From: a virus
Strand: one strand, 5' to 3'
UHGV virus genome: UHGV-0716684
Length of the DNA stretch: 44,840 nucleotides
This document shows, piece by piece, positions 16,771 to 44,532 of this stretch; positions within the stretch are counted from its first letter, which is position 1; the number at the start of each line of letters is the position of its first letter. The position numbers and the translations under genes are program-made. The notes under the pieces were generated by a model that saw only the letters and a list, made by a program, of their open reading frames with translations, was not told the DNA's origin and did no database searches.

Positions 16771-16799
16771 ATATTAAGGCCCCTATTGGGGCCTTAATC

Positions 16800-18212: not shown

Positions 18213-18252
18213 CGCACCGCAATAAGAAAAAATTCCCTGAGATATTATTTTT

Positions 18253-19790: not shown

Positions 19791-19793
19791 TAT

Positions 19794-19820
19794 AAGGCCC
19801 CGAAAGGGGCCTTAATTTTA
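19794..19820. terminator. conserved terminator hairpin aaggccccgaaaggggcctt
   Basis: Perfect 8 bp stem, GAAA loop, T-rich flank; same hairpin at 27155 and 39396. Confidence 0.6.
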
Positions 19821-20357
19821 ATAAGCTAACCAAGAACCTCTTTCTGTGAACATCAATTTATTTCCTTTTAAGAGATTCAGAACCGCAGGGATAACTTGTA
19901 TGTTTTCTGCGACGTGCAGCCCTGAGACAGTTTTAGCCCGCAACGGCAGCATGTGGTCGATATGCCATAAGAAACCTGTTTCACCCGCTCGCAGTTGACA
20001 TAGCTCCTGCGCTTCTTCGAATACTAATAGGTCAAATTCATCATTCCTGATGTTTATACTCCTGGCTCTTTTTGCCGTTTTATACTTCAACCTTTGGGCT
20101 TTCCTGGCGGTTTTGTTTTTCTTACGGTACTCCGCATCAATTTCGGCTAATCGGTCTTTATTTTCTTGCCTCCATTTTGCGTTTTTAGCCGCCCAAGAAA
20201 CAGCGTTTCGTTCTCGGTACGATTTTTGTATCTCTTTAGTGCACTCATAGCACCCGGTGCGAACATGCCTTTTCGCAACATGCCCGCGTTTACACGGTTT
20301 GCCAGTGAAGTAATAATCATCCCCCGCGGCTATGGCTTCTGAACGCTTAGTGAGCAT
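19818..20357 (-). CDS. HNH-type endonuclease
   Basis: 179 aa; CKRGH..C.EC zinc-binding N-terminus and WHIDHMLPL...N HNH-like core. Confidence 0.6.
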   Translation of the reverse strand: MLTKRSEAIAAGDDYYFTGKPCKRGHVAKRHVRTGCYECTKEIQKSYRERNAVSWAAKNAKWRQENKDRLAEIDAEYRKKNKTARKAQRLKYKTAKRARSINIRNDEFDLLVFEEAQELCQLRAGETGFLWHIDHMLPLRAKTVSGLHVAENIQVIPAVLNLLKGNKLMFTERGSWLAY

Positions 20358-20382
20358 AAAACCCCCTGTTTAAGTTAACCGA

Positions 20383-20411
20383 ATAGTACCCTATTATATT
20401 GGTGTGTGCAA
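20383..20411 (-). promoter_or_regulatory. promoter TTGCAC-N17-TACTAT with GAATAG-N4-CTATT palindrome
   Basis: Reverse complement TTGCACacaccaatataatagggTACTATtc; upstream of the HNH gene. Confidence 0.5.
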
Positions 20412-20686
20412 ACTATTTGTTTACATATTCCAGTTATTCCACTCAATTGTAAATGTTGGAATAAACTATTCGAATAGTTGACTTTTCACTAAAAATATGA
20501 TAAGCTCCACCTGAGCTTGTGAAGTATGAACAAGCGACCGCGGCGCGGGCAGGTAACGGAGCCGGATGTTAAGTCCGAGTGTAGTTACGCTGACGCGTTC
20601 GGAAGGGCCGTACTCTATTGCTTGTGTAAAAAGTAACTGGTTTACTGAGATTACGCCGTTTCTATGTTTAAATGATAAGGACTAGC

Positions 20687-20712
20687 GCCCCGCTTTAAGG
20701 CGGGGCTTTACT
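20687..20712 (+). terminator. terminator-like hairpin (gccccgc-tttaag-gcggggc, then tttacttat)
   Basis: GC stem followed by T-rich tract, located in the leader just upstream of the i-spanin RBS. Confidence 0.45.
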
Positions 20713-20730
20713 TATCGAGAAAGGAGAAAC

Positions 20731-21117
20731 ATGAATCTTAAAGCAACTGTCGTAGCGGGGGCATGTTTCATCGTCCTGTTATACGCACACGGCTACTTTC
20801 AATACCGCAGCGGTTGGGACGAAGGCCGGGCGAATCTCGTTTCGCAGCAACAGCAGGAAGCACAGGCTGAGTTAGCGAAGAAAACACAACGGCAGCAGCA
20901 GGATGAGTCGAAGGCCGCAGCCGCTGATAACGAAGGCAAGACGAAATCAGAGGTAATTACACGTGAAGTCGTTAAGTACATTAAAACGCCCGGTCGCAGC
21001 GTGTGCACTTTCGATGATGCTCGCGTCCTGCTCAAGTCCCGCGCCGTCGCAAACGCCAATTCCATCCCCGGATACGACAATGATGCAGCCGCCGTGCAAA
21101 CTGGCTCCGCCAAGTAA
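20731..21117 (+). CDS. i-spanin (Rz-like)
   Basis: 128 aa; N-terminal transmembrane segment, Q/E/K-rich coiled-coil-like middle; AAGGAGAAAC RBS. Confidence 0.6.
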   Translation: MNLKATVVAGACFIVLLYAHGYFQYRSGWDEGRANLVSQQQQEAQAELAKKTQRQQQDESKAAAADNEGKTKSEVITREVVKYIKTPGRSVCTFDDARVLLKSRAVANANSIPGYDNDAAAVQTGSAK

Positions 21118-21226
21118 CGACGCTGACGAGGATTTGGCTATCGACGTTCAGAACGCCGAATGCGTACGGCAACTGAGGCTGAAAGTGTTCATGTTGCAGG
21201 ACTACGTGAGGAATATTCTGGAATAG
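20963..21226 (+). CDS. o-spanin (Rz1-like lipoprotein), overlapping the i-spanin in another frame
   Basis: GTG start; signal peptide with lipobox LASC; proline-rich mature part; extends past the i-spanin stop. Confidence 0.55.
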   Translation: MKSLSTLKRPVAACALSMMLASCSSPAPSQTPIPSPDTTMMQPPCKLAPPSNDADEDLAIDVQNAECVRQLRLKVFMLQDYVRNILE

Positions 21227-21308
21227 TTGCCTTGCATGTTGGAATAATTTATTCTTGACATGTAAATCCGGGTGGCCCGGGTTCCAACGTCCAGGGGACA
21301 TACTGACT

Positions 21309-22010
21309 ATGAATCGTTTTTTACGTTATCCGTTCCAGGAAGAAGCTGGGGCAGAAGATAAAGCTGGTGGCGGTGACGCGCCAAAAATGTTCACCGCTGA
21401 AGAAGTTCAGGCGCTGATTGAGAAAGAAGTAGCCGGGCTTAAGGCCAATCAGGAAGCGTTGCTGGCGGAGAAGAAAGAAGCCGCTCGTAAAGCAAAAGAG
21501 GCCGAAGAAGAACGGCAGCGTGCCCACCAGGAGGCGTTAAAAGCCGCTGGTAAGATGGACGAGTTCGAAAAGACGATTCGTAGCCAGTATGACCCGGTGT
21601 TAGCTGAGAAAGATGGTCGCATCTCCAAAATGGCAGAGCGCATCCTCGGCAGCGAACGTAAAGCGGTGTTAGGCTCTTTCGCGGGCGACTTTATCACCCC
21701 TGAAGCAGTAGACATTCTTGCACCGTTCGTTAAGACTGAGTTCGAAGGCGATGATGTGGTTACTAAGTTTGTCGGCGCAGATGGCAATGTAATCACAACT
21801 GACCCGGAACAGTTCCGTAAATATTTGCGTGAACACAAAGCGTTTTCGCATTTGATTAAAGCAAATGCAGCTTCCGGCGGCGGGGCTTCCGGTGGCAAAG
21901 GCGGCGGGGCCGCACCAGCGTTTAAAGACATGAGTGAAGCAGAGCGTTTAGCCCTGTATAAATCGAACCCTGCCGAATTTGAACGGCAACTTAAAGCCCT
22001 GAGGAAATAA
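21309..22010 (+). CDS. putative capsid scaffolding protein
   Basis: Charged, helical-looking E/K/A-rich protein immediately upstream of major capsid gene; ORF track starts at 21255 (TTG), ATG at 21309 preferred. Confidence 0.55.
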   Translation: MNRFLRYPFQEEAGAEDKAGGGDAPKMFTAEEVQALIEKEVAGLKANQEALLAEKKEAARKAKEAEEERQRAHQEALKAAGKMDEFEKTIRSQYDPVLAEKDGRISKMAERILGSERKAVLGSFAGDFITPEAVDILAPFVKTEFEGDDVVTKFVGADGNVITTDPEQFRKYLREHKAFSHLIKANAASGGGASGGKGGGAAPAFKDMSEAERLALYKSNPAEFERQLKALRK

Positions 22011-22012
22011 TA

Positions 22013-23062
22013 ATGGCAATTACTACTATCGGCGATATCGTAACTGGCAACATCCCGGTCCTGGCGTCTTATATGACCGAGGACCCGGTAGAAAAAACCG
22101 CGTTCTTCCAGTCTGGTATTCTGACCCCGACCCCATACGCTGCCGAGATTGCCCGCGGCCCGTCCAACATCGCTAATATTCCTTTCTGGAAAGCGATTGA
22201 TACCTCTATCGAGCCAAACTACTCGAACGACGTATACCAGGATATCGCTACCCCGCGTAACGTGCGGACCGGTGAGATGATGGCGCGCGTTGCATACCTG
22301 AACGAAGGTTTCGGCCAGGCGGACCTGACTGTCGAACTGACCAGCCAGAACCCGCTGCAATCAGTAGCTTCTCGCCTGGATAACTTCTGGCAGCGCCAGG
22401 CACAACGCCGTCTGATTGCCACCGCGCTCGGTCTGTACAATGACAACGTGGCCGCTACCGACGCATACCACGAGCAGAACGACATGGTGATCGACGTGTC
22501 CGCTACTAAAGGCTTCGACGCGGGCGCGTTCATCGACGCTACCCAGACTATGGGTGATGCGCTGATGGGCAACGGCGGTGAAGTGCTGGGCGCTATCGCG
22601 ATGCACAGCTTCGTTTATGCGCAGGCCCGTAAGCAGCAGCTTATTGACTTCATCAAAAACGCTGACAACGATACCCTGTTCGCCACCTACCAGGGCTACC
22701 GCGTGATTGTTGATGACAGCATGACGGTAGTTGGTACAGGCCCGAGCCGTAAGTTCATCTCCATCATCTTCGGCAACGGCGCTATCGGTTACGGCGAAGG
22801 TAACCCGAAAAATCCGCTGGCATATGAGCGCGAAGAGTCCCGCGGCAATGGTGGCGGTGTCGAAACCTTGTGGACCCGTAAGACCTGGTTACTGCACCCA
22901 CTGGGCTACAGCTTCACCAGCGCAGTAATCACTGGCAACGGCACCGAGACTACCCCGCGCTCCGCTTCCTGGCAGGACCTGGCGAACGCCTCCAACTGGA
23001 ACCGTGTGGTTGAACGTAAGCATGTGCCTATTGCCTTCCTGGTAACTGGTGTAGGTGCTTAA
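22013..23062 (+). CDS. major capsid protein
   Basis: 349 aa ORF after scaffold gene, followed by a strong terminator; size and position typical. Confidence 0.8.
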   Translation: MAITTIGDIVTGNIPVLASYMTEDPVEKTAFFQSGILTPTPYAAEIARGPSNIANIPFWKAIDTSIEPNYSNDVYQDIATPRNVRTGEMMARVAYLNEGFGQADLTVELTSQNPLQSVASRLDNFWQRQAQRRLIATALGLYNDNVAATDAYHEQNDMVIDVSATKGFDAGAFIDATQTMGDALMGNGGEVLGAIAMHSFVYAQARKQQLIDFIKNADNDTLFATYQGYRVIVDDSMTVVGTGPSRKFISIIFGNGAIGYGEGNPKNPLAYEREESRGNGGGVETLWTRKTWLLHPLGYSFTSAVITGNGTETTPRSASWQDLANASNWNRVVERKHVPIAFLVTGVGA

Positions 23063-23078
23063 GGTTAAGCTATAATCG

Positions 23079-23104
23079 AGAGGGACTTCGGTCCCTCTTT
23101 TCAT
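23079..23104 (+). terminator. rho-independent terminator
   Basis: agagggac-ttcg-gtccctct followed by tttcattt. Confidence 0.6.
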
Positions 23105-23123
23105 TTACTAAGAGGATCCCTCA

Positions 23124-23468
23124 ATGGCAGACGTATTGAAACGACGCATCACCGGCGTCTCCGCTGACGCCCCGGGCGCTAAGATTGACATGGAGACTAT
23201 TTCTCCTGCGTCTTTTTCTACCCCACTTAACGCTACTACCGAGGTTACCGCACCCGCCGCATTGACTCTCGCCGTTGCGGTAACTGGCGGTCTGGAGCCA
23301 TATTCTTACCAGTGGTATAAGAATAACAACGCCATCGCCGGCGCTACCGCAGCTACGTACACCAAGTCCACTACTGTCGCTACTACCGACTCCGGCACGT
23401 ATAAAGTGGTTGTTCACGATGCGTATGGTAATATTATCTCCAGCAGCACTGTAGCAACTGTGTCTTAA
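23124..23468 (+). CDS. Ig-like domain protein (possible head decoration protein)
   Basis: 114 aa; YSYQWYKNNNAI...DSGTYKVVVHD Ig-like signature. Confidence 0.5.
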   Translation: MADVLKRRITGVSADAPGAKIDMETISPASFSTPLNATTEVTAPAALTLAVAVTGGLEPYSYQWYKNNNAIAGATAATYTKSTTVATTDSGTYKVVVHDAYGNIISSSTVATVS

Positions 23469-23504
23469 TACAACGGCCCTTCGGGGCCATAATAAGGAAA
23501 GGTC

Positions 23505-23684
23505 ATGGCAGATAATTATGTAATCCGTGAAAAGTACACTCACGTTGATGTTGTTGATGGTCAGGTGATGCCTGTTCGCGGTGTTGTAGACGCGGATGAA
23601 CTGGTTGCTACTCAACCGGACAACGAAGAAGCGCACAACAACGGTGGTGGTACTAAGCGTCGACGCCGTAAGTCAGAGGAATAA
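23505..23684 (+). CDS. small hypothetical protein (59 aa)
   Basis: Hand-translated MADNYVIREKYTHVDVVDGQ...; AAGGAAAGG RBS. Confidence 0.45.
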   Translation: MADNYVIREKYTHVDVVDGQVMPVRGVVDADELVATQPDNEEAHNNGGGTKRRRRKSEE

Positions 23685-23687
23685 TTC

Positions 23688-24200
23688 ATGCCGCTAATCG
23701 TGGAAACTGGGGCAATCGTCCCTAATGCCGACAGTTACATTAGTCTGGCTGACGCCCGCGCGTTAGCGGCTAATTATGGTCTGGAGTTGCCTGCGGACGA
23801 TACCGCCGCAGAGGTGGCCTTGCGCAACGGTGCTACTTATGTCGGGCTTGCAGAACCGCAGATGTGTGGTCGTCGTGTATCCGCCGAACAGTCACTGGCA
23901 TATCCTCGCACTGGTGTAACGTTGAACGGCTTCCCTGTAGCTAACAACGTCATCCCGAAGCAGGTAATTCTTGCGCAGGTAATTGCTGCTGTTACCTATG
24001 GCGCGGGTACTGAGGTGCGGGCTAACTCAGACGGGCGTTCCGTGCAGACTGAGCGTGTTGAGGGTGCGGTGACAGTGACCTACTTCAACAACGGCAACAG
24101 CGGGGCTACAACTGCTATTACCGCCGCGGACGACGCTTTACGCCCGTTACTGTGTGGCGGTCTTAACAACGGCTTCTCATTTAATGTGTACCGGGGTTAA
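23688..24200 (+). CDS. putative head-tail connector/adaptor protein
   Basis: 170 aa; position in head-to-tail joining block; call by synteny. Confidence 0.45.
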   Translation: MPLIVETGAIVPNADSYISLADARALAANYGLELPADDTAAEVALRNGATYVGLAEPQMCGRRVSAEQSLAYPRTGVTLNGFPVANNVIPKQVILAQVIAAVTYGAGTEVRANSDGRSVQTERVEGAVTVTYFNNGNSGATTAITAADDALRPLLCGGLNNGFSFNVYRG

Positions 24201-24202
24201 AA

Positions 24203-24817
24203 ATGGCGAAGACTAAAACAGAGATATTTACGCTAATCGGGTCCGAGCTACCTGACAACACGACCGGTCTTATTACCCCCGCCGCATTGCGCGAGGTAAT
24301 GACGCAGATGGCGGACTCGCCTATCTACGCCACTCCAGGCGTTAAAGAAGTTGAAGTTCTACGTGCTGCGTCTACCATAGCACAAGCACCAACCGCGGTA
24401 GATACAGCATTGCAGTTAACTTTTGGCTCCGCTCAGGGTAGCGCATCCGACCCAGTAACGATTAATGCCGCAGGGCTGGTTACGTTCAACACCCCCGGAA
24501 ACTACGCCGTTCGCATCAAGTTGCAGGCGGGGCGCACGGGTGCTAGCGGTACATCAATCTTGCTATCACGTATTTTAGTAAATGGCGCTCAGTACGGCTC
24601 GCCCGCCGCCACGAAACTAGTCAGCGCCGACGTAACGATTCCGATTGAATCCCGCGTTGTTATTAACCCGACAGCAGGCCAGACGTTTGCCGTTCAGATT
24701 ATGCGAGATAGCCCCGGAAGCAACTACGGCGGCGTATACCCGCAAGCGGCTACCGTGACCGCATGGGGCACAGCACCATCCGCGCTACTGGTTATCTCAA
24801 GACTGGAGGCCGCCTGA
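24203..24817 (+). CDS. hypothetical structural protein
   Basis: 204 aa ORF in head-tail joining block. Confidence 0.5.
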   Translation: MAKTKTEIFTLIGSELPDNTTGLITPAALREVMTQMADSPIYATPGVKEVEVLRAASTIAQAPTAVDTALQLTFGSAQGSASDPVTINAAGLVTFNTPGNYAVRIKLQAGRTGASGTSILLSRILVNGAQYGSPAATKLVSADVTIPIESRVVINPTAGQTFAVQIMRDSPGSNYGGVYPQAATVTAWGTAPSALLVISRLEAA

Positions 24818-25176
24818 TGAGCACCGCTTTCAGTAAGCGTATGCAAGGCGTGGGTACGCGCCTGCTAACCAAATTCGGCAGCACGGTGTCGCTGATTCGC
24901 GCTGGCTCGAAAGTGTGGGATGAAGCCCTCGGCGAGTACGTATGGTCTGACGATGAAGTGTTGCCGTTGAAGGCCGTTCCGGTTCCGGTAAACGCGGGAC
25001 TGGTAAATGGTACGACGATTCAGGCCGGCGACATGATTGTTAAAGCCGATTACAGTGTCGTACCGAAGATGGAAGACAAGGTTCAATTCGGCGGAGAGCA
25101 ATGGTCCGTCGTAACCATTGAGAAGAAGATGGTTAATGATGATGTCGTGGCCTACTTTATTCAGGTGAGAAAATGA
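24817..25176 (+). CDS. putative head closure / tail completion protein
   Basis: Start at ATG overlapping upstream stop (TGATG); call by synteny only. Confidence 0.45.
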   Translation: MSTAFSKRMQGVGTRLLTKFGSTVSLIRAGSKVWDEALGEYVWSDDEVLPLKAVPVPVNAGLVNGTTIQAGDMIVKADYSVVPKMEDKVQFGGEQWSVVTIEKKMVNDDVVAYFIQVRK

Positions 25177-25568
25177 GTTTCGCGCTCGATGTCTCTAAGT
25201 TCGTGGAAAAGGCGAAGAAGAACCCTGAGACGGTGATGCGCCAGGTGTCTATCAAGCTGTTTTCCGCTATTATAGAGGCGAGTCCGGTAGATACGGGTCG
25301 CTTTCGTATGAACTGGATGGCATCTGGCGGTACTCCTGCTTCCGGTATTACAGACGCTACGGATAAATCAGGAAACACGGCAACCGGAAACGCTACGAGT
25401 TTCGTACTGAAAGCCGCAGACTGGCACGAGTTCACGCTGACAAATAACCTGCCGTATGCACAACGGCTGGAGTATGGCTGGTCGCAACAGGCACCCGCCG
25501 GGGTGGTCAGGACTAACGTGTCCCGCTTCCAGCAACTCATTAACGAAGAAGCCAACAAGGTGAAATGA
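25173..25568 (+). CDS. HK97 gp10-like neck/tail-component protein
   Basis: 131 aa; motif SPVDTGRFRMNWM characteristic of the HK97 gp10 family. Confidence 0.55.
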   Translation: MSFALDVSKFVEKAKKNPETVMRQVSIKLFSAIIEASPVDTGRFRMNWMASGGTPASGITDATDKSGNTATGNATSFVLKAADWHEFTLTNNLPYAQRLEYGWSQQAPAGVVRTNVSRFQQLINEEANKVK

Positions 25569-27150: not shown

Positions 27151-27154
27151 AACT

Positions 27155-27179
27155 AAGGCCCCGAAAGGGGCCTTTTCTT
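27155..27179. terminator. conserved bidirectional terminator hairpin aaggccccgaaaggggcctt
   Basis: T-rich tract on both strands; convergent gene ends. Confidence 0.65.
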
Positions 27180-27396
27180 ACTCACTTTTGAACGGCATTT
27201 CGTAGAAGTTAGTTAACTGGCCTCGGTCCCTTCGTTCTGTCATTTCTTTAGAGGCCTCTTCCTTACTACTAACGGCATAAATATCAACCCACTCGTCCCA
27301 TTCTTCGTCGTATACTCGGATTACATATATTGTTTTCATAATATTTTCACTCATCAATATTGCTTCGGTATTCCCGTAACTTCTCCAGACTTTCAA
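27178..27396 (-). CDS. hypothetical protein (accessory island)
   Basis: 72 aa ORF on opposite strand within tail module. Confidence 0.45.
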   Translation of the reverse strand: MKVWRSYGNTEAILMSENIMKTIYVIRVYDEEWDEWVDIYAVSSKEEASKEMTERRDRGQLTNFYEMPFKSE

Positions 27397-27577
27397 TTGC
27401 TTCTGCTAAGTCGGTTCCGGTGTCCTTGTGTCCGCGCAAGCCCATGCACAATAACTTCTTTAACGCATGCTGTAGCGCCGGGTCACGGATATCGAAAGCA
27501 CGGAGCACATCATAAACGTCTACTGTCATGGTGCTGCCGTGAGTGTTTGTCATTGTGCGGTTGTATTTTGAAGTCAT
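27347..27577 (-). CDS. hypothetical protein (accessory island)
   Basis: 76 aa ORF. Confidence 0.45.
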   Translation of the reverse strand: MTSKYNRTMTNTHGSTMTVDVYDVLRAFDIRDPALQHALKKLLCMGLRGHKDTGTDLAEAIESLEKLREYRSNIDE

Positions 27578-27586
27578 CTCTACACC

Positions 27587-28087
27587 CTATTTATAACCGT
27601 TGTTGAATGTTGTCAGTCCATGATTTATGTGAAACCTATTAGCCACAGACATGTAAATTCTTTCAGCGAAAGCGTCCTCTATTCTGTCAAATGTTTTACT
27701 AATCTGCTTACCGTTGACAACGGCATAAGCTCTCCACTTAGTTTTTCCTTTCCGCGCCACACCCGTAACTCCAGAGGTATTATCTTTGCGCCTTTTCACG
27801 TTAACCATGTTGTCCCTTCTAGATTTGCATGACAGGTTTTCAATTCTGTCGTCACAGGTATCATGGTTAGTATGGTCTATGACAAATCCTTTTGGAATCT
27901 TACCTGAGAACATCTCATACACCACCCTCGACCTTTTAAACTTACGGTTACCAAACATGACATACCAATAGCCGTTTTTACACAAACTCCCGGCCACATC
28001 ACCTATATTCACATCGTTACGGCGACATGATTTGACTTTCCAGTATAGGACGCCATTTTTGTAGCTAAAAACCTCACTCCAATCCAT
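27587..28087 (-). CDS. HNH homing endonuclease with AP2 DNA-binding domain
   Basis: HNH_3 motif VIDHTNHDTCDDRIENLSCKSRRDN; AP2-like SGVTGVARKGKTKWRAYAVVNGKQISKTFDRIEDA. Confidence 0.75.
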   Translation of the reverse strand: MDWSEVFSYKNGVLYWKVKSCRRNDVNIGDVAGSLCKNGYWYVMFGNRKFKRSRVVYEMFSGKIPKGFVIDHTNHDTCDDRIENLSCKSRRDNMVNVKRRKDNTSGVTGVARKGKTKWRAYAVVNGKQISKTFDRIEDAFAERIYMSVANRFHINHGLTTFNNGYK

Positions 28088-28102
28088 ACTTTCACCTATA
28101 TT

Positions 28103-29257
28103 TTAGTATGTCGATTTTGGGTTTATGTCTCGCAGCATTTCGACAGGTATACTTATGCGGGACACCTCCCCGTAACGTTTGTGGTATGTAATCACATTTG
28201 CGCTTCTACCTGAATAATAGCCGCCCTTACTAGAATACTCATCTTTAGCCGCTAATGTCTGGTGTTGCTCAACAATTAGCAGATTAGTCTCTTTAACCGC
28301 CCTGTGATGGAGGTGCCCCGTATGGACATATGTGAACTTACACCGCCCGTACATCTCCCGGTACTTACCGATTATAGCCTGCTCTACCTTAGCAAAGTTA
28401 GAACAATGCCCGTGATGTGCTGAAATCATACAATCCCCGAACTTGTACGCATAATACGGTGACACCTCCCGGTTAACCTCGACGCGAGGCTCATTTGTGT
28501 ATACCTCGTAGAACATCTCCCGGAGCCACAGAGAAGAACTAAGGTCGTGGTTACCTTCACAGATAAGAAGTTTAACCTTCTTGTGTTTTCGCAAGCACAG
28601 TGAGACAGCCAGCTTGATAACCTTAATGGCCGTGCGTATCATTTTAAACAGGCGACTATCCGCTGAAAGAATATGACCGCTCATAGGGGTCATTGCCTTC
28701 ATGCCGTCGTAGTGCATTTGGTCCCCTAAGAAGTTAATGATACATTCACCACTCTGTGGACTCATACAAACCGCACTGTTGAACCAGTCAACCGCGAGAG
28801 ATTCCGCGATTGTGGTGTCGTAATCATCCCCGCCTTCTTCTTGACACGCCAACATCCCTATGTGATGGTCTGTTATTGTGTAAAGATTTAATAAGTCGTC
28901 ATCTGTCCCATTTTTGGCCAAAGTGACTGGCTTATACTTGGGTAAATCTTTTTTCATCTCGTCCACAACGGCTTTCATTAACTCGACCTGACGTTCCGCA
29001 TCGGTGTCGGTCTTAACCCATTGCAGTTTAGTGTTGCCTAACTCATCAACCAGAGACGATGTACCCTTAATCTTGTAGCCGTCCGGCACAAGGTGGCTAA
29101 CGTCACGCCCGTGGCCTACGCCTTTCTTCGCTAGTTTCGCTTTACGGATACGAATAACGCGGTCTGAGATGCCGTATTTACGAGCAATGTCGATATTCTT
29201 CATCCCAGCGTTCAATTCTTCCTGTAACTGTTCGTCGGTTATTTTCTTCTGGGCCAT
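28103..29257 (-). CDS. HTH-fused calcineurin-like metallophosphoesterase
   Basis: N-terminal HTH (IDIARKYGISDRVI); phosphoesterase motifs TDHH, GDQMHYDG, GNHD, HTGHLHH. Confidence 0.65.
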   Translation of the reverse strand: MAQKKITDEQLQEELNAGMKNIDIARKYGISDRVIRIRKAKLAKKGVGHGRDVSHLVPDGYKIKGTSSLVDELGNTKLQWVKTDTDAERQVELMKAVVDEMKKDLPKYKPVTLAKNGTDDDLLNLYTITDHHIGMLACQEEGGDDYDTTIAESLAVDWFNSAVCMSPQSGECIINFLGDQMHYDGMKAMTPMSGHILSADSRLFKMIRTAIKVIKLAVSLCLRKHKKVKLLICEGNHDLSSSLWLREMFYEVYTNEPRVEVNREVSPYYAYKFGDCMISAHHGHCSNFAKVEQAIIGKYREMYGRCKFTYVHTGHLHHRAVKETNLLIVEQHQTLAAKDEYSSKGGYYSGRSANVITYHKRYGEVSRISIPVEMLRDINPKSTY

Positions 29258-29322
29258 GCCTATTTCCTCGTGTTTAGGATTTGTCCTATTTAACCACAGT
29301 GCATTCCTTTAAATAAAGGCAA

Positions 29323-29649
29323 CTATTTACTTTCTGCGCCTATTGACCATCCGGTTGTAACCATTTGCAAACGAGTGGCTAACAGTAGGCTGCTGAAAGT
29401 GGGGCTGTTAACATCTACAGACTCAACAACAAGGGATGTCATCAATTCAAGACCAAGGCCAGACCCGCCAGCGCGCACGGCAGCATTACATTCGCGAATA
29501 GCAGCGGTTTTAAACGCACTAACGGCAGACGGAGGGGCTGAATCAAGCACCCCGGAAGTTACTAAAGGGGTTTCACTATATACTTGCTCACACTGGGACC
29601 CTACCGCGCAAAAAGAAATAAGACCCATGGCTATGATTAATTTACGCAT
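29323..29649 (-). CDS. small secreted/periplasmic protein
   Basis: 108 aa; N-terminal signal peptide MRKLIIAMGLISFCAVG; first gene downstream of promoter at 29690-29718. Confidence 0.5.
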   Translation of the reverse strand: MRKLIIAMGLISFCAVGSQCEQVYSETPLVTSGVLDSAPPSAVSAFKTAAIRECNAAVRAGGSGLGLELMTSLVVESVDVNSPTFSSLLLATRLQMVTTGWSIGAESK

Positions 29650-29689
29650 TTTAATTCCTTATTTAAGTTAATAACGTTGGTGTAAGTGA

Positions 29690-29718
29690 ATAGTACCCTA
29701 TTATATTGGGGTGTGCAA
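29690..29718 (-). promoter_or_regulatory. promoter TTGCAC-N17-TACTAT with GAATAG-N4-CTATT palindrome
   Basis: Reverse complement TTGCACaccccaatataatagggTACTATtcac; essentially identical to 6855-6883. Confidence 0.5.
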
Positions 29719-29826
29719 GTAGTGTGTTAGAATAATTTTGCACCTAGTGTCGCGCACGAAAAGCGGTTGGTTACCGCCTGGTGCATTTCTCTTTAACCAA
29801 CAACCTCTTAACCAAAGGATTAAAGA

Positions 29827-32598: not shown

Positions 32599-33998
32599 TG
32601 AGCGACTTATATTTCCCACGTAGCCTTAAGCCAATTGTATCGAAAGGCTACTCGATGACCAGACGTAACAACGTCTGGAGCGTTGATTTAGCTGGTGGCG
32701 GTGTACGTCAGGGGCGCGACACGTATTACGACGTGTTCCCGGTGAGCGTAACCCTGATTACATCCGCAATGGGGCGACAGGCGTTTCTGTCGTTCCTCGA
32801 AAAAGTAGACGGCGGTGCGTCAAGTTTCTGGATGGCGCACGACTTCGGCATGGGCATCGAAGATTATCAGGTAACCATTACGTCCACTATCGCCGAGTCC
32901 ACCGAAGACGGGATTAACTGGACAATTACCTTCACGGCAACCGCCGAGAAATCGCCGTTCCAGGACCTTGAGAACCAGTGCCTGATTAACAATCTTCCGG
33001 ATTTGTACGGCTGTTACGGGGATTGTCTGGGTAGTTTCCTGAAAATATACGCGAACTATGAGACGACGTTCCCTCGCATCTGGAGCAATGAAGGCCCCGC
33101 CGGGTATCCGCCGATTAACCTTCTGGCGTCGACTCTTGATAGCCGCATTGTGTATGAGGGGCCACAGGTTTATTACATCAACCGCAATGGTAATCTTGTA
33201 CAGTCCGCCGCCAATGAATGGCCTCTTACGTTTATTGACGGGGTTGCCGCCGGGCGCGTGCCACCAGAGGTATCAGTAACTAACAGATTCCTATATTCAA
33301 GCAATTTCTCTTCGTCAAACTGGAACAAAGGTTTGGTGAGTGTATCAGTATCTGAAACAGGTGTTTTAACAGCCGCTGGCACGTACGACGTAACTGCTAC
33401 CGCCGCACGCGGTAACCACCTAATAAACCAGACTGTAGATGTTAGCGTTGGTGTTGGCGACATGGTTACTTTTAGTTTCTTCGCAAAAGCAAACGGATAC
33501 AATTTCATACGGATGTACGTGCGAGAACTTCCTACAGTATTAGGCTCGGCAGTTGTTGATTTGCGGGATGGTAGCATTTATTCCGGCCCAGGCGGTACAG
33601 ATGTAACCGACGTAGGCGGAGGGTGGTTCCGAATATCGGAGACGATCACCGCGACAGAAGATAAAACAATGAGCATACGGATGGACGCATGGATATATTC
33701 AGACGGAGTTACCGGATCCTTTACGGGGGATGGCGTTTCAGGGATTAAATTATCCGCGGCTACTGTAGAGGTAAACCAAAATACAACATCACCAATAATT
33801 ACGTCGGCGTCTCCTGTAACACGCCCAGCGCCATCGGCAAAAGTAGTAATGAACGGCGCGACAAGTATCGACATCACCTATTCCGACGGCTCCGTGATAA
33901 ACGTTCAGGCTGTAGATGATTACGCGACTATCCCTCAGGCCGATTCTGCGTGGGGTAGTAAATATATCACTCGTATTGATTTTAATGTGGACGGCTAA
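32598..33998 (+). CDS. distal tail protein (lambda gpM-like N-terminal domain with C-terminal extension)
   Basis: 466 aa; N-terminus MSDLYFPRSLKPIVSKGYSMTRRNNVWSVDLAGGG resembles the minor tail protein M family; directly after tape measure. Confidence 0.55.
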   Translation: MSDLYFPRSLKPIVSKGYSMTRRNNVWSVDLAGGGVRQGRDTYYDVFPVSVTLITSAMGRQAFLSFLEKVDGGASSFWMAHDFGMGIEDYQVTITSTIAESTEDGINWTITFTATAEKSPFQDLENQCLINNLPDLYGCYGDCLGSFLKIYANYETTFPRIWSNEGPAGYPPINLLASTLDSRIVYEGPQVYYINRNGNLVQSAANEWPLTFIDGVAAGRVPPEVSVTNRFLYSSNFSSSNWNKGLVSVSVSETGVLTAAGTYDVTATAARGNHLINQTVDVSVGVGDMVTFSFFAKANGYNFIRMYVRELPTVLGSAVVDLRDGSIYSGPGGTDVTDVGGGWFRISETITATEDKTMSIRMDAWIYSDGVTGSFTGDGVSGIKLSAATVEVNQNTTSPIITSASPVTRPAPSAKVVMNGATSIDITYSDGSVINVQAVDDYATIPQADSAWGSKYITRIDFNVDG

Positions 33999-34001
33999 CT
34001 T

Positions 34002-34517
34002 ATGAGTCAGGAATCAGTAGAAGCTGCCTATCGCCGTAAGTTGGCATCAAATCCCGACGGCGAGATAGACTACATCACGTTGCAAATCAGCCACCCGTTG
34101 TTGTCAAAGACGTACTATCTTGTTCGTGGGCTACAGGAACTTACGGCGACACTGGAAACCGGCGAAACTATCACATTCGAACCCACCCCGATGGAGGCGT
34201 CCGGGGCCGCTAACAACAGCGATATGGACCAGACGACGACGTTTACACTACCGGATATTCTCAATCAACTTGATGATGAGATGGATAAAATCCCGATGAG
34301 TAACACCGAGTTGCCGAAGTTTGTATTCCGCCGTTACGTCGGCACCGACCTGTCTTATCCTGCGGACGGCCCTGTCGTGTACGAGTTACAGGCCATCAAT
34401 CAGGAGAAAGGCGAGTTTTCCGCAGATGTCGGTACACCTATGCTGAACCAACGAAGCACTGGTATACTGATGACACCTAAAGAGATACCGTTATTACGCG
34501 GCCTGTTGACCACATGA
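34002..34517 (+). CDS. minor tail protein
   Basis: 171 aa ORF in tail tip block. Confidence 0.45.
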   Translation: MSQESVEAAYRRKLASNPDGEIDYITLQISHPLLSKTYYLVRGLQELTATLETGETITFEPTPMEASGAANNSDMDQTTTFTLPDILNQLDDEMDKIPMSNTELPKFVFRRYVGTDLSYPADGPVVYELQAINQEKGEFSADVGTPMLNQRSTGILMTPKEIPLLRGLLTT

Positions 34518-34879
34518 ATATTAACGACTACACGGGCATACCTTACGACTTTCGCAAACGCAATTGCTGGCATCACGTGCGCATTGTCCGCGCGGATGCC
34601 GGGTTAGAAACCCCTGCGTTCGACGTTACAAGCCCAACGGCAATTAACGAAGCGTTTGACGAAGGCCGCCGTGACACGAAGGGGCTTACAAAAATTGATA
34701 AGCCTGAAAACTTCTGCGCGGTGCTTATGGGTTATCGCCGCGGGGGTCGTATCGTGTGGCATGCGGGAGTTTACTTCGACGGGATGGTGAGTCATTGCGA
34801 GCTTGCATCCCGCCAGGTACGGCTTGACAGGCTGGCGGACCTCAGAGACACGTACACGGAGATTGAATTTTGGCGATAA
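34514..34879 (+). CDS. tail assembly protein with NlpC/P60-like Cys-His motif (gpK-like)
   Basis: 121 aa; NCWHHV and HAGVYFDGMVSHCE motifs. Confidence 0.45.
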   Translation: MNINDYTGIPYDFRKRNCWHHVRIVRADAGLETPAFDVTSPTAINEAFDEGRRDTKGLTKIDKPENFCAVLMGYRRGGRIVWHAGVYFDGMVSHCELASRQVRLDRLADLRDTYTEIEFWR

Positions 34880-37425
34880 TCCTGCACTACTCGCGAAACG
34901 CTGATGGCGCTTTCGACCGTACAAAACACGTCGGGATGCCGATGGAGTTTGTTGTTAGCCGTATTCCGGACGGTGTGCCTGTGCGCGTCTACCTCGGCGA
35001 GATTGGCGATGATACTGATGTTACAGACGACTTCGAAGCGCTTAAAGACGAAGACGCCGTGTACCATATTATTGAGGGTGCGGGTAGCGGGGCGCTTGGT
35101 GCAGTTAGTAAGGTATTTGGTTTTATCCTTAAGCCAATCGCTAAGTTGTTTGGCCTGAACATGTCCGCAAACGCCAACTATACGGCGACTAACAACCAGA
35201 CAACATCGCCAAATAACAGCCTCACGGACCGCTCAAACAAACCACGCCCTTACGAGCGCTCTTATGACATCTGCGGGACTGTGCAGACAATCCCTAACGA
35301 CCTTATGCAGACGTATAAAGCGTTCAACTCCACTGGTGCTTTGCTGGAGTATTCGTACTACGACGCCGGGCGCGGACATCTGTATATTGAGGCCGATGGC
35401 GTCACGGAAGGCGACACCCTGATAAGCGACATCACAGGTTCCTCTGTTGCCGTGTACGCGCCGTATACGTCACCGAACAACACCACATCGCCGCAGGTAC
35501 AAATCGGCGACGTCATTGATCAGAAGCTCTATGTGACGTACTCCAATGACGACGTTGACGGTATTGTGCTCAAAGCGCCAAACGACATTGGGGCTAACCC
35601 AAGCTCCGGTGGAACCGCCAAACGTACTTCGACCACCGGCTACATCTATGACCCGTCGGGCGACTCTGCTTTTTCTGAGTTTCTTAGCGTCGGTGATGTC
35701 GCGGTGCTGAGCAACTTTGACGTTGCTGATGTCACTAACCTGAACGGCTCGTTTGAGGTTTTATACGTTGATGACTTCGAAGTAAGATTAGCGGTAAACG
35801 GTGCGTCTAACTGGGCGGCGTTGACCAGCGGGCAGACGTACGCCCTAACAGAGCGTTCAGATACGTTTATCGGCCCGAGCGACACCTATGACGTATCCCT
35901 GACAGACTGGTATTACATGGTGCGCGGAGAAGTTGACCGGGTGCTTGCGAACGTTGCCGGGCAGAACGGCATCTACAAATACGACGGCGGCTATAACCGC
36001 ACCAGCGTAACGGTGGAACTCCAGTACCAGATGATTGACTCTCAGCGTAACCCGTTGAGCGATATTTACACGGTACAGGCTACGATTACTGGTAATAGCA
36101 CGGATTACGTTGGTACGTCTATCTACGGGCAGTTGCCGACCGCGTCTCGTTTCCGCGCCCGTATGCGCCGTATAACGAATTTTGATAAGGACTATGACGG
36201 AACGGTAAGCGACGAGATAACATTCATTAACCTGTATGGGCAGTCTCTGGACACCACTCCACACTACGGCAACCGAACTACCGTACATTGCGCCCGTAAA
36301 CAGACGCCGCGGGCCGCCAGTATCGATAACCCTGAACTGCGCATGATTGCGACCGAGATGTGCTACAAATACCTCGGCAATGGGGTATTCGATACAGTAA
36401 TGACACCGAACACGCAAGCCGTACAATCTCTAATTCGACTGGCGCGCGACCCCGCAGTAGGCAATCTGGAACTGACAACGGCAAACATGGACAAGTTACT
36501 TGCTGTGCAGGAAGAAATTGAGTCCTATTTCGGAAGTGAATTAGCAGGGCAATTCTGCTACACGTTCGACGACTATGACACAACCATGCAGGACATCGTC
36601 CAGACCATAGCGGAAGCCGTTTTCTGTACTGCGTACCGTAAAGGTGCGGATATTATGCTGCGATTCGACCGTCCTGTCGCGGGGCCTGAAATGGTGTTCA
36701 CCCACCGCAGCAAAACTACCGGTACTGAGAAATGGACCCGCACGTTCAACGATTCGACAACCTACGATAGCCTGTCGTTCTCATACATCGACCCGGATAC
36801 GAACGTACAGGAAACTATTTATATCCCGGAAGAACTAGGGGCAAACACCGAGGAATACGAATCGAAGGGCGTGCGCAACTATCAGCAAGCGTACTGGCTG
36901 GCGTGGCGTCGCTACCAGCGCAATGCGTTAAGTAAAGTTGTCGTAGAGTTTGAAGCTACCGAAGAAGGTGCGCTCGCTACCCCAGGCGGTGTAATCAGCG
37001 TAGTTAAAGGCTCGCGTATTGCGCCACAGGACGGCTATGTTGCTGCCGTTAATGGGCTTACGCTGACACTGTCACAGCCGGTTGCGTTTACTCCGGGTGA
37101 TGACCACTCCATCATCCTCAAGAAGCGCGATGGCTCTGTACAGAGTATCTCCGTTATCAAAGGAAGCCACGACCGCGAAGTGATTATGCTCTCCGCGCCG
37201 GAAGAAGCAATCTACACGGGGAATAGCGCACTAAAAACTGAGTTTTCATTCGGCAACGAAGCAAGGCATAATGCTCAGAAGATAGTTGTTTCTTCAATCG
37301 ACCCCGGCGACGACCGCACGGTCAAGATTACAGGCTACAACTATGACGACGGATTCTATAAATACGACGGCGTCGCGCCATACGGCAGCGGTTTCTCCGA
37401 CGGATTCAGCAATGGTTTTAATTAA
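34870..37425 (+). CDS. tail tip / host specificity protein (gpJ-like)
   Basis: 851 aa ORF after the M/L/K-like genes; start uncertain (TTG 34870 or ATG 34936). Confidence 0.6.
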   Translation: MAIILHYSRNADGAFDRTKHVGMPMEFVVSRIPDGVPVRVYLGEIGDDTDVTDDFEALKDEDAVYHIIEGAGSGALGAVSKVFGFILKPIAKLFGLNMSANANYTATNNQTTSPNNSLTDRSNKPRPYERSYDICGTVQTIPNDLMQTYKAFNSTGALLEYSYYDAGRGHLYIEADGVTEGDTLISDITGSSVAVYAPYTSPNNTTSPQVQIGDVIDQKLYVTYSNDDVDGIVLKAPNDIGANPSSGGTAKRTSTTGYIYDPSGDSAFSEFLSVGDVAVLSNFDVADVTNLNGSFEVLYVDDFEVRLAVNGASNWAALTSGQTYALTERSDTFIGPSDTYDVSLTDWYYMVRGEVDRVLANVAGQNGIYKYDGGYNRTSVTVELQYQMIDSQRNPLSDIYTVQATITGNSTDYVGTSIYGQLPTASRFRARMRRITNFDKDYDGTVSDEITFINLYGQSLDTTPHYGNRTTVHCARKQTPRAASIDNPELRMIATEMCYKYLGNGVFDTVMTPNTQAVQSLIRLARDPAVGNLELTTANMDKLLAVQEEIESYFGSELAGQFCYTFDDYDTTMQDIVQTIAEAVFCTAYRKGADIMLRFDRPVAGPEMVFTHRSKTTGTEKWTRTFNDSTTYDSLSFSYIDPDTNVQETIYIPEELGANTEEYESKGVRNYQQAYWLAWRRYQRNALSKVVVEFEATEEGALATPGGVISVVKGSRIAPQDGYVAAVNGLTLTLSQPVAFTPGDDHSIILKKRDGSVQSISVIKGSHDREVIMLSAPEEAIYTGNSALKTEFSFGNEARHNAQKIVVSSIDPGDDRTVKITGYNYDDGFYKYDGVAPYGSGFSDGFSNGFN

Positions 37426-37437
37426 AGAGGACTCTAT

Positions 37438-39390
37438 ATGTCAAGCGGATGCGGTGACGTTTTAAGCCTGGTGGATTTACAGACCGCCAAGAAACACCAA
37501 ATTTTTGAAGCCGAGGTTATCACCGGCAAATCCGGCGGTGTTGCTACTGGTGCTGATATTGATTATGCAACAAATCAGGTTACCGGACAGACACAGAAGA
37601 CGTTACCCGCCGTGTTGCGTGGCGCGGGATTTTCTCCCGTGTCGTGGGACTTTTCTACAGGCGGGACATTAACAGTTAATGACCGAGACAAAGTGGTGTA
37701 TGACCCTGTAAGCAAGACGTGGTACTCGTATACCGGGACTCTGCCGGTTGTTGTCCCCGCATCGTTTAACCCGGTTGGTAACGCTAACTGGAAGCCGCAG
37801 ACTGACCCGGATTTGCGCAATGAGCTAGCAGATCTATCCGGCGCATCTTTGGTGGGATTCAATTCTGGGTATTCCGATTCGGTTTCACTCACCGTAATGG
37901 ATAAACTCAAACAGGAGATTAACGTTGATGATTTTGGCGCATACGGTGACGCCTACCTGGTAAACGGAAGCCCAAACCCTAGTCGCCATGACGACACATC
38001 GGCGTTTCAGGCGGCTATAGTCGCCGCGTGGCGCGCGGGTGGTGTTAAAGTTGTTGCTACTCCGTGGAAAAGCTACTACATCGCCGGTAAAGTTTATGTG
38101 TTGGCTTCAGAATCTCCATCTGACATTGAAGCAACTAATTTCCCTAAGCGTAGGATGCAAGTGATCGATTTTCAGGGCGCTCGTATCGTAGGGCGTGACG
38201 ACACTTCTGACACAACTAACGTGTTCATTGAGACTGGCTATATAACTTCTACTGGCACTATCTCTTCGGTTTTTGGAAAATCTGGTGAAGAGTATCTAAC
38301 TATAGGGACAACAATTCGCAATGCTACACTGATTAATTTCTATCAAGGCTTTCGTCTGCGGGACCATGTATTTGGCTGCGAAGTTACAGATATTGTTGGT
38401 GTAAACGTCCAGCAGTTGATTTACACTCAGCGCTGTTTTTACTCCATGTTCAGGAACCTACAGTGTAACGGTACATACACTAACGGCTTGCACCGTTACC
38501 ACTTTACCGATGAATGTAACATTCAGCCATTAGTATCAGTTCATACAGGCCAGTGTGATGTCGGCATTAAGTTCGAAGGGGCTGTTGAAGCTCTTACGCT
38601 GTTCAACTGCGGCATTGAAAGTTTTCGTACCCATGGCGTTTGGATTGCAGGAGCATATAACATCAAGTTTGATTCATGCTACATAGAGTCAGACGAAAGT
38701 GGTGTATATGGCGTCATAGCAACGAGCGCCAATAATATCACTATGGATAACTGTTGGATTTACGGCAGTAGTATGAAAATGTTTGGCGCATTTGACGATA
38801 ATACTAACGTGCGTATTCTTCCTAATAACCGTATTGGGGGAGGGGCCGTTTGGTGGAACCTTAACGAAGGGTCGCCGTACAACCTTTCTGACATTCACTG
38901 GCAAACAGATATAAAACCCGGCGGTACAACACTACCCGCTGCATCCGCTAAAGAGGCCAGCACAGTAGACCAGACTATAGTCTTCTACCACCCGGATTTA
39001 GGACTTAGTTCAGTTGTAGGGAAAGCCAAGCAGACCAGTAAATACCACCCGCAGCTTGTTAACGGGAAGATGAGCAATGGTAGCTCCGCAGGGTACACAG
39101 TTGGCGCGAGCGTCTCTACAGAGATTTCTGGCTCAGACACCCGAGCAAAATGGACAACACAGATTCAATACTCAGATACCCAATTACTGTTCCTCGCCCT
39201 TAAAATAGACCATAACTTGGGGACATGGTTTTGGCTCGGGCATGTAGCCGGTGGGACCGCGGTGGCGCTTTCTACATCCGATGTATCGAAGCCGCCGGTG
39301 GTGAGCAACGAAAATGGCTTCGTTGTGGTAAAAAGTCCTTATTTGGCTACTCCTGTCGCCATACACGGCGGGGAAATACGCATACTCTAA
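37438..39390 (+). CDS. tailspike / tail fibre, candidate receptor-binding depolymerase with beta-helix-like body
   Basis: 650 aa; N-terminal anchor-like domain, then repeated Asn/Cys-containing rungs (NCGIESF, DSCYIESD, MDNCWIYG); last structural gene. Confidence 0.65.
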   Translation: MSSGCGDVLSLVDLQTAKKHQIFEAEVITGKSGGVATGADIDYATNQVTGQTQKTLPAVLRGAGFSPVSWDFSTGGTLTVNDRDKVVYDPVSKTWYSYTGTLPVVVPASFNPVGNANWKPQTDPDLRNELADLSGASLVGFNSGYSDSVSLTVMDKLKQEINVDDFGAYGDAYLVNGSPNPSRHDDTSAFQAAIVAAWRAGGVKVVATPWKSYYIAGKVYVLASESPSDIEATNFPKRRMQVIDFQGARIVGRDDTSDTTNVFIETGYITSTGTISSVFGKSGEEYLTIGTTIRNATLINFYQGFRLRDHVFGCEVTDIVGVNVQQLIYTQRCFYSMFRNLQCNGTYTNGLHRYHFTDECNIQPLVSVHTGQCDVGIKFEGAVEALTLFNCGIESFRTHGVWIAGAYNIKFDSCYIESDESGVYGVIATSANNITMDNCWIYGSSMKMFGAFDDNTNVRILPNNRIGGGAVWWNLNEGSPYNLSDIHWQTDIKPGGTTLPAASAKEASTVDQTIVFYHPDLGLSSVVGKAKQTSKYHPQLVNGKMSNGSSAGYTVGASVSTEISGSDTRAKWTTQIQYSDTQLLFLALKIDHNLGTWFWLGHVAGGTAVALSTSDVSKPPVVSNENGFVVVKSPYLATPVAIHGGEIRIL

Positions 39391-39395
39391 AAACT

Positions 39396-39419
39396 AAGGC
39401 CCCGAAAGGGGCCTTTTCT
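39396..39419. terminator. conserved bidirectional terminator hairpin aaggccccgaaaggggcctt
   Basis: Identical to hairpins at 19794 and 27155; between convergent genes. Confidence 0.65.
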
Positions 39420-44505: not shown

Positions 44506-44532
44506 TAGTAAAAAGGCCCAATGAAGGGCCTT
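44506..44532 (-). terminator. terminator hairpin (aaggccc-aatgaa-gggcctt) with T-run on minus strand
   Basis: Between end of upstream minus-strand gene and DNA polymerase start. Confidence 0.5.

Follow-up and report, generated by a model that had tools for sequence, protein, structure and literature searches.

The genome UHGV-0716684 (the window, meaning the whole stretch of DNA that was analysed, 44,840 nucleotides) belongs to a Kagunavirus (Guernseyvirinae; Jersey/K1G-like) coliphage. A palindromic element of 20 nucleotides (nt), AAGGCCCCGAAAGGGGCCTT, was found in it three times as an exact match, always on the plus strand (hairpin copies 1 to 3, Table 1); none was expected from 100 dinucleotide-preserving shuffles. 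A variant with a longer stem is present once. All of these elements lie where rightward genes meet leftward genes, and this raises the question of what such an element does at these boundaries and why it is repeated. A sequence-only reading had taken it to be a bidirectional terminator hairpin whose reuse marks the places at which opposite-strand cargo genes were inserted into the structural operon. Comparison with related phages indicated that this interpretation was largely right, with corrections. The four hairpins probably represent one conserved family of intrinsic terminators in the Guernseyvirinae and, in Kagunavirus, probably form one half of a promoter-cargo-terminator bracket that coincides with crossover points.

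Four hairpins between convergent genes

The positions of the three 20-nt copies were confirmed exactly, and a hairpin census recovered the variant with its 11-base-pair (bp) stem and TATT loop; the 20-nt core of the variant, AAGGCCCCTATTGGGGCCTT, occupies 16776-16795. All four hairpins are flanked by convergent stop codons, in gaps of only 27-29 nt, and lie 2-6 nt from both stops. The stems are 8-11 bp long, contain six G-C pairs and consist of perfect Watson-Crick pairs with no G-U pair, so that pairing is equal on both strands. The predicted RNA folding energies (plus/minus strand, kcal/mol) were -17.9/-17.0 for copy 1, -16.3/-17.7 for copy 2, -16.3/-17.1 for copy 3 and -25.5/-23.7 for the variant, with z-scores of -3.3 to -5.7 on both strands.

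The hairpins had also been said to have T-rich tracts on both sides, a description that was not precise. In copies 2 and 3 the stem is preceded by an A-tract (AAAACT) and followed by a T-tract (TTTTCT), and for this reason a U-tract would be present on each of the two transcripts. Copy 1 is followed by AATTTTAA and preceded by just GATAT, and the tracts of the variant are poor on both sides. When a terminator consensus scan with a U-tract rule of at least five T residues in eight was applied, copy 1 was flagged on the plus strand only, copy 2 on both strands, copy 3 on the minus strand only and the variant on neither. In structure and in their placement at convergent junctions the hairpins resemble intrinsic terminators, and bidirectional termination is predicted. 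A scan of the whole window against Rfam at gathering thresholds returned no family.

Conservation of the hairpin family in relatives

Relatives were sampled as 80 IMG/VR loci around homologs of the tail-tube gene and 73 around homologs of the helicase gene, and the sequence 3' of four orthologous genes was read. The exact stem, AAGGCCCC...GGGGCCTT, followed the Hoc-like gene in 29 of 42 loci and the tail-tube gene in 48 of 80, and was present in 34 of 40 loci at the junction between the tailspike gene and an open reading frame (ORF) of 45 amino acids (aa). After the portal gene it was found in 8 of 39 loci, together with 19 that had a GCCCC...GGGGC core. The loops varied freely in sequence and in length, from 3 to 7 nt (GAAA, TTTC, GTTAT, ATTAA, AAAC, GTTT, TTGAC and others); AAAC or GTTT was usual at the tailspike junction, and GAAA and TTTC predominated at the tail-tube junction. 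In distant relatives the hairpin at the tail-tube junction was kept, with G and C swapped in its stem (AAGGGCC, AAGGGGC, AAGCCCCC, AAGGGGCC). Among 25 distinct versions with a 4-nt loop, five of the eight pairs had changed on both sides and 97.5% of cells were paired, in a set that was picked by a hairpin finder and whose pairing is partly by construction. A conserved stem, a free loop, compensatory changes in distant relatives and a position after the stop codon together form the pattern typical of selection on RNA structure, and hence of a putative terminator.

Hairpins of this family have already been predicted to be terminators in published relatives. Those of phage Golestan at the tail-tube (T06/T07) and tailspike (T09) junctions were predicted by ARNold as Rho-independent terminators on both strands (PMC7203180, Table S5), as were the orthologous hairpins T1/T2 of phage fBC-Eco01 (PMC9825357, Table S2). 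The hairpin site is annotated as a repeat_region in one Jerseyvirus record.

The form of the hairpin differed with the presence of cargo. In cargo-free Kagunavirus genomes the portal and Hoc junctions have a one-way form, AAGCCCCGAAAGGGGCTTTTT, in which only one side has a T-run (AGCCCCGAAAGGGGCT-TTCTTAT or AAGCCCCGAAAGGGGCTT-TTTAG, with no upstream A-tract and, in some, a G-T pair), whereas cargo-bearing genomes have an A-tract, AAGGCCCC-loop-GGGGCCTT and then AGTTTTA. This contrast supports use of the hairpin in both directions where a convergent gene is present. Jerseyviruses have the family hairpin at the Hoc junction even without cargo.

Two further patterns were observed among the hairpins of relatives. 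Inversions of the loop only (GAAA to TTTC or the reverse at the tail-tube junction, AAAC to GTTT or the reverse at the tailspike junction) were as frequent as identical loops in the tail-tube loci L122-L201. They were seen even where the 600-nt upstream flanks were 94-97% identical, and between loci L157 and L158 both flanks are kept and the loop is flipped. Recurrent 4-nt flips inside a perfect palindrome are suggested by these alignments. In addition, hairpin-gene-hairpin arrays were found 0-800 nt after the tail-tube gene in Jerseyviruses and in one Kagunavirus (L156, L157, L158, L170, L181, L187, L189, L135 and L150). The enclosed gene is on the minus strand, encodes 143-238 aa and has a DNA-binding or anti-repressor-like annotation in GenBank relatives; the hairpins are 530-813 nt apart, and their two loops are mutually reverse-complementary in five of seven clear cases.

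A predicted promoter-cargo-terminator bracket at the docking junctions

Gap lengths among relatives ranged from 42 to 1434 nt between the portal and head-morphogenesis genes and from 317 to 1586 nt between the Hoc and spanin genes, and the extra DNA at these two junctions was always accompanied by minus-strand ORFs. The map that recurred can be written as gene> T cargo< P< gene>, where T is the family hairpin and P is a promoter-like repeat, both mapped in Kagunavirus loci; the two are separated by 0.2-2.5 kb and close off the leftward unit on either side. Read toward its gene, the repeat has the form TTGCAC-N17-TACTAT and includes the conserved element ...TGAATAGTACCCTATTATATTGGTG..., and across 55 distinct instances from relatives its core hardly varies. 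Three copies are present in the window. One lies just upstream of the 179-aa gene at the Hoc junction and forms the 5' bracket of that cassette, a second precedes the leftward module at the tail-tube junction, a position that is also occupied in the mapped Kagunavirus loci, and the third faces rightward genes starting at 6918.

Hairpin and repeat went together with cargo. At Kagunavirus-like portal and Hoc junctions both were absent from 24 of 24 cargo-free cases, and the 27 cargo-bearing cases comprised 21 with T and P, four with P only and two with T only, in loci that are phylogenetically related and therefore do not count as independent events. The proposal that reuse of the element marks insertions of opposite-strand cargo is supported at these two junctions, where in Kagunavirus relatives the AAGGCCCC hairpin is missing without cargo and usually present with it, and where the two endonuclease-like genes of the window are missing from vB_EcoS_XY1 (XY1), the closest relative of the window phage. 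It does not extend to the others, since the tail-tube copy borders a module that is found in all relatives and the tailspike copy lies between the structural region and the end of the replication operon. Nor is the hairpin specific to cargo, as is seen from the cargo-free Jerseyvirus Hoc junctions and from the one-way variant of cargo-free Kagunavirus. The earlier account did not include the matching repeat at the 5' end of the leftward units.

The cargo itself is diverse, with 47 clusters in about 40 genomes. It includes an N6/N4 DNA methylase, a PAPS-reductase-like protein, a DpdA-like transglycosylase (phrog_887), a KilA-N protein, endonucleases and many small ORFs. Some cassettes are shared between junctions. 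Of the loci that carry a 173-aa cargo gene (phrog_3007), seven have it at the Hoc junction and one at the portal junction; a 57-aa cargo gene (phrog_20712) was likewise split between the two. In the alignment of cargo from the two junctions, homology of about 90% at the nucleotide level starts exactly at the A-tract and hairpin and ends just past the promoter repeat. In the window, the segment 19811-20425 fits the definition of a moron: a predicted promoter (the repeat), a gene and a hairpin, inserted between resident genes and missing from XY1. Within the literature searched, the bracket architecture and the sharing of cassettes between junctions appear undescribed for Kagunavirus and the Guernseyvirinae.

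The repeat also contains an overlapping, alternative candidate -35/-10 pair, AACAcA-N17-TATAAT, and an operator-like inverted repeat, AATAG-N4-CTATT, over the -10 region. In fBC-Eco01 it was found by PHIRE in seven copies, with the consensus tgAATAGTa-ccTATTat-T, and was attributed to a phage RNA polymerase (PMC9825357); no RNA polymerase gene was seen in the annotations of two relatives. As regards the hairpin, identification with a homing-endonuclease target site or an element resembling a miniature inverted-repeat transposable element was rejected, because it occurs without an endonuclease gene, most cargo genes do not encode endonucleases and there are no target-site duplications.

Breakpoints at the hairpins and probable exchange of the tailspike domain

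Nucleotide identity between the window and XY1 and many other records was 88-94% and patchy, with no record covering 80% of the query. At the portal junction, 16759-18284 of the window, which includes the variant hairpin, the endonuclease gene and its upstream spacer, replaces 86 bp of XY1 that include the terminator of that phage. At the Hoc junction, homology to XY1 reaches 19810, the 17th base of the 20-mer, and resumes at 20426. The insert (19811-20425), made up of the end of the 3' arm, the gene and the promoter repeat, therefore begins inside the hairpin. XY1 and two other cargo-free genomes have chimeric hairpins with a 5' arm of GGCCCC and a 3' arm of GGGGCT, and a chimera of this kind is the product that would be expected of a crossover within the hairpin.

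The tailspike has a receptor-binding part that is unique to the window phage and diverges up to the stop codon just ahead of copy 3. When the region 37900-39560 was compared, every Kagunavirus match started at 39387-39390, at that stop codon, which makes hairpin copy 3 the right edge of the apparently swapped receptor-binding domain. The body of this domain is a right-handed beta-helix by Pfam, and its best GenBank phage match, at 66.8% nucleotide identity, is the tail-fibre gene of the podovirus vB_EcoP_P64441. The family hairpin is not present after that podovirus gene.

Taken together, these findings are consistent with the following model. The hairpins would mark the places where rightward structural units meet the 3' ends of leftward units. 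Each would stop RNA polymerase arriving from either direction, since the palindromic stem consists of perfect Watson-Crick pairs and is bordered by an A-tract and, on its opposite side, a T-tract. Antisense read-through from one convergent unit into the next would thereby be prevented. In Kagunavirus the hairpin would bracket the 3' end of the leftward unit and the sigma-70-like promoter repeat its 5' end, giving a unit of promoter, gene or genes and terminator that is directed against the structural gene flow, i.e. a moron-type cassette. Such cassettes, and the receptor domain of the tailspike, may be exchanged between co-infecting relatives at the bracket sequences. These sequences coincide with crossover points and probably serve as such, because no other sequence at the edges of the otherwise unrelated cargo is conserved. 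We infer termination, promoter activity and recombination at the bracket in vivo from these sequence comparisons.

Spread of the 20-mer and identity of the three copies

The exact 20-mer was present in at least 120 IMG/VR stretches, with flanks mostly unrelated to the window phage, in which a stop codon is typically followed by an A-tract, the hairpin and a T-tract. A 32-nt query matched 1064 GenBank phage records, mostly Guernseyvirinae with two to six places each, and also T4-like Klebsiella and Citrobacter phages in which the site is annotated as a terminator. Because it is present in many unrelated phages, the 20-mer is probably a common, near-optimal terminator. A full-text literature search for the hairpin sequence retrieved no paper.

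The notion of one reused element was correct for the stem and the tracts, which are reused throughout the subfamily; identity of all 20 nt at three sites is peculiar to the window genome. No sampled relative had three identical copies and only one had two. GAAA in the plus orientation is rare, with 1 of 29 exact-stem loci at the Hoc junction and 2 of 34 at the tailspike junction. In the window, copies 2 and 3 are identical over 30 bases (AAAACT, the 20-mer and TTCT), and the flanks of copy 1 are different. The triple identity is either coincidental and specific to this lineage or a remnant of recent recombination, and no function is seen in it; most likely it arose from a favoured GAAA (GNRA) tetraloop together with the history of recombination.

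Weighing of alternative explanations

Several findings weigh against the interpretation of the hairpins as two-way terminators that form part of a bracket. The U-tracts are short and interrupted, and copy 2 alone passes the terminator scan on both strands. The literature searched for transcript data from the Guernseyvirinae yielded none, so that termination, and how efficient it is in either direction, is predicted. If termination on the plus strand is efficient, then the structural region needs promoters or antitermination past each hairpin, and no 9-mer that might represent late promoters was shared upstream of the rightward structural units that follow the hairpins. The other terminator-like hairpins of the window, including that of a convergent junction at 3522, have different stems. 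The bracket is not universal, in that no promoter repeat was found upstream of the 470-aa endonuclease gene, Jerseyvirus cargo lacks the Kagunavirus promoter repeat and a fourth cargo site, between the tape measure and minor tail genes (phage DUEC01; L276, 17071-17977), has a different hairpin, TATGGCCC-TTTC-GGGCCATA, and no promoter repeat. The window has no minus-strand cargo at its own tape measure/minor tail site (32598). The breakpoints at the hairpins may also be passive, since an insertion beside a conserved element necessarily ends homology there. Finally, loops at different sites of one genome did not evolve in concert: 1 of 77 comparisons matched in the same orientation, against 2.5 expected by permutation, and four matched with flips allowed, against 5.2. 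As these matches were not above chance, no ongoing exchange between sites was seen, and general gene conversion was dropped as a cause of the similarity of the hairpins.

One alternative is that the hairpins are ordinary terminators only, with no role in recombination and a triple identity that reflects convergence on a favoured sequence; accessory genes would then accumulate beside them because few sites other than the short gap behind a terminator tolerate an insertion. The wide occurrence of the 20-mer and its near-matches in phages with mostly unrelated flanks, the predominance of GAAA and TTTC at the tail-tube junction, the lack of excess loop matching within genomes and the cargo sites with other hairpins all agree with that explanation. 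It is nevertheless unlikely, because the same cargo gene is found at two junctions with the same hairpin-to-promoter limits, T and P come and go together with cargo, cargo-free genomes have chimeric hairpins, and the use of one G/C stem of many possible at four sites throughout the subfamily would be hard to reach by independent convergence. The hairpin and promoter repeat might also be active recombination substrates of a small cassette-exchange system in virulent Guernseyvirinae, by which promoter-gene-terminator units with endonuclease, DNA methylase, DpdA-like and other accessory genes would be excised, inserted and moved among three or four fixed docking junctions through short-homology recombination at the palindromic terminator, possibly via extruded hairpins. 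The loop-only inversions and the hairpin-gene-hairpin arrays hint at such exchange, and the arrays are a possible substrate or product of mini-circle recombination; we regard a system of this kind as doubtful. Recent copying within the genome, by gene conversion or by import of cassettes that carry the same hairpin, would account for three identical copies, for a plus-orientation GAAA loop at two sites where it is rare and for the 30 nt shared by copies 2 and 3, and it would suit a mosaic genome in which a tailspike domain of foreign origin and endonuclease insertions lie beside the copies. Against this, the GAAA loop and 5' arm of copy 1 are continuous with the Hoc flank, as in GAAA-bearing cargo-free relatives, so that copy 1 need not derive from another site; its flanks are unlike those of copies 2 and 3; and one triple-GAAA genome among several hundred sequenced relatives is not very improbable. 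Recent copying is consequently judged to be quite improbable. Least credible of all is that the palindrome is primarily a protein site in double-stranded or cruciform DNA, for a regulator, a structure-specific nuclease or an attC-type recombinase, rather than an RNA terminator. A stem that is conserved at several sites with free loops could be read in this way, as could the frequent loop-only inversions, which suggest that a DNA hairpin forms in vivo, and the several nucleases and the recombination module encoded by the phage. However, loops of 3-7 nt would alter the spacing of half-sites, the stems covary in distant relatives rather than keeping one sequence, a stop codon immediately precedes every site and A/T tracts accompany it, no integrase is annotated in two complete relatives and the same hairpin is widespread in unrelated phages.

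With the interpretation of a conserved terminator family within a bracket retained, the useful result is a map of how this phage group is built. A few fixed junctions serve to dock backward-facing accessory genes between a standard promoter and a two-way terminator, both predicted, and a terminator ends the swappable domain of the tailspike. For annotation, the map indicates where accessory or anti-defence genes should be looked for in Kagunavirus and Jerseyvirus genomes. For engineering, the junctions may offer natural landing pads, and the hairpin and repeat compact insulated parts, for therapeutic coliphages. The brackets also provide a second, independent example, outside the T4-like phages, that bears on whether regulatory motifs guide modular exchange.

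Features of the window

The features discussed are listed in Table 1. The 470-aa endonuclease-like gene at the portal junction was unique among the sampled loci, and a homolog of the 179-aa gene was found at the same (Hoc) junction in one Jerseyvirus locus. The head-morphogenesis ORF downstream of the former is listed from an ATG at 18253; homology to the annotated start in XY1 begins at 18285/18286 (ATGAGCTTACTTAC). The true start is probably 18286, as judged from this alignment, and the spacer to the 470-aa gene would therefore be 73 nt and not 40 nt.

The leftward module at the tail-tube junction comprises small ORFs, an HNH_3 endonuclease gene (27587-28087), a DNA repair exonuclease gene (28103-29257) and a 108-aa gene. 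Among relatives the exonuclease and the bracket are kept and the hairpin-proximal genes are variable; several alternative gene sets occupy the stretch equivalent to 27178-28102. Compared to XY1, genes for an acid phosphatase and a calcineurin-like phosphoesterase are gone from this end of the module and the HNH_3 endonuclease gene is there. The 76-aa ORF at 27347-27577 was considered as what is left of a longer ATPase gene truncated by the HNH insertion; this was rejected, since the same 76-aa form is present in 25 loci and is therefore a regular variant. The unit that ends at copy 3 is the replication operon, which includes a SNF2-type helicase gene (39554-40978). The 45-aa minus-strand ORF is the last of this leftward operon and overlaps the start of the helicase gene.

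Two other hairpins of the window were noted. The related 7-bp hairpin near the right end, which is also present in phage DUEC01, lies between co-directional genes. The convergent junction at 3522-3540, between genes for a DicA-like repressor (3317-3532) and a helicase-primase (3550-5772), has its own two-way-looking hairpin, AAGGGGCG TAA CGCCCCTT followed by TCTTTTT.

Table 1. Positions of the hairpins, promoter-like repeats and associated genes in the window.
Feature	Position	Strand	Remarks
Promoter-like repeat	6855-6883	+	Faces rightward genes
Variant hairpin	16773-16798		ATTAAGGCCCC TATT GGGGCCTTAAT; 11-bp stem; portal stop 16770, opposing stop 16800
470-aa homing-endonuclease-like gene	16800-18212	-	phrog_559/phrog_3339; Pfam treble-clef DUF4379; stop 16800 adjoins variant hairpin
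Hairpin copy 1	19794-19813		AAGGCCCC GAAA GGGGCCTT; extendable to a 9-bp stem (19793-19814); Hoc-like stop 19790, opposing stop 19818
179-aa endonuclease-VII-like/HNH cargo gene	19818-20357	-	phrog_1035; between promoter repeat and hairpin copy 1
Promoter-like repeat	20383-20411	-	Upstream of 179-aa gene
Hairpin copy 2	27155-27174		Tail-tube stop 27150, stop of last gene of leftward module 27178
Leftward recombination/repair module within tail region	27178-29649	-	Spans promoter repeat to hairpin copy 2
Promoter-like repeat	29690-29718	-	Upstream of leftward module (29649 to 27178)
Tailspike receptor-binding part	37900-39390	+	Unique to window phage
Hairpin copy 3	39396-39415		Tailspike stop 39390, 45-aa ORF stop 39420
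Related 7-bp hairpin	44513-44532		AAGGCCC AATGAA GGGCCTT; between minus-strand genes upstream of DNA polymerase gene

Comparison with known systems

The hairpins of the window resemble the bidirectional intrinsic terminators that lie between convergent bacterial genes, with a GC-rich perfect stem, a tetraloop, an A-tract and a T-tract, and a very short gap. There is no essential difference between the two; what is unusual here is the use of one stem at up to four junctions throughout a subfamily and the presence of three identical copies in one genome.

The morons of lambdoid phages, as set out by Juhala, Hendrix and colleagues in 2000, are said to be extra genes with their own promoter and terminator that lie between resident genes. 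The Kagunavirus cassettes are similar in that they are predicted units of promoter, gene and terminator, variably present among relatives and inserted between late-operon genes. Unlike lambdoid morons, cassettes of the type seen in the window are found in a virulent siphophage, face against the operon and use one terminator jointly with the resident convergent gene. They also differ in having one standardised promoter and terminator at several sites, and in that some of the cargo consists of homing endonucleases with their own means of spread. The brackets do not resemble an integron-like (attC) system, since no integrase or recombinase was annotated in two complete relatives or seen among the window ORFs examined.

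A predicted terminator of about 20 nt after tailspike genes has been proposed to be a recombination hotspot (Virol J 2023, PMC10408124). By position it is like copy 3, which lies at the right edge of a swapped receptor-binding domain and directly after the gene for a receptor-binding protein. The published motif is from Gamaleya-, Kutter- and Justusliebigviruses and from single Kayfuna- and Nouzillyviruses, and Kagunavirus is not among them.

The PeSL elements of T4-type phages consist of a sigma-70-like promoter and a stem-loop terminator with G/C runs at the edges of variable genes, and modular shuffling by homologous recombination has been proposed for them (PMC2839356, PMC4122927). Promoter activity, terminator activity and mini-circles have been demonstrated for PeSLs (PMC2839356, PMC4122927). 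As in those phages, the boundaries of insertions, deletions and replacements coincide with the motifs, here at the cassettes, the Hoc insert and the edge of the tailspike domain, where the coincidence is known from sequence comparison. A PeSL unites promoter and stem-loop in a single motif, present in about 50 copies per genome in hyperplastic regions, whereas in Kagunavirus the two are separate, stand at opposite ends of the cassette and number three or four copies each. Of the systems compared, the PeSL cassettes are the closest to the Kagunavirus brackets, although the brackets are not PeSLs in the strict sense.

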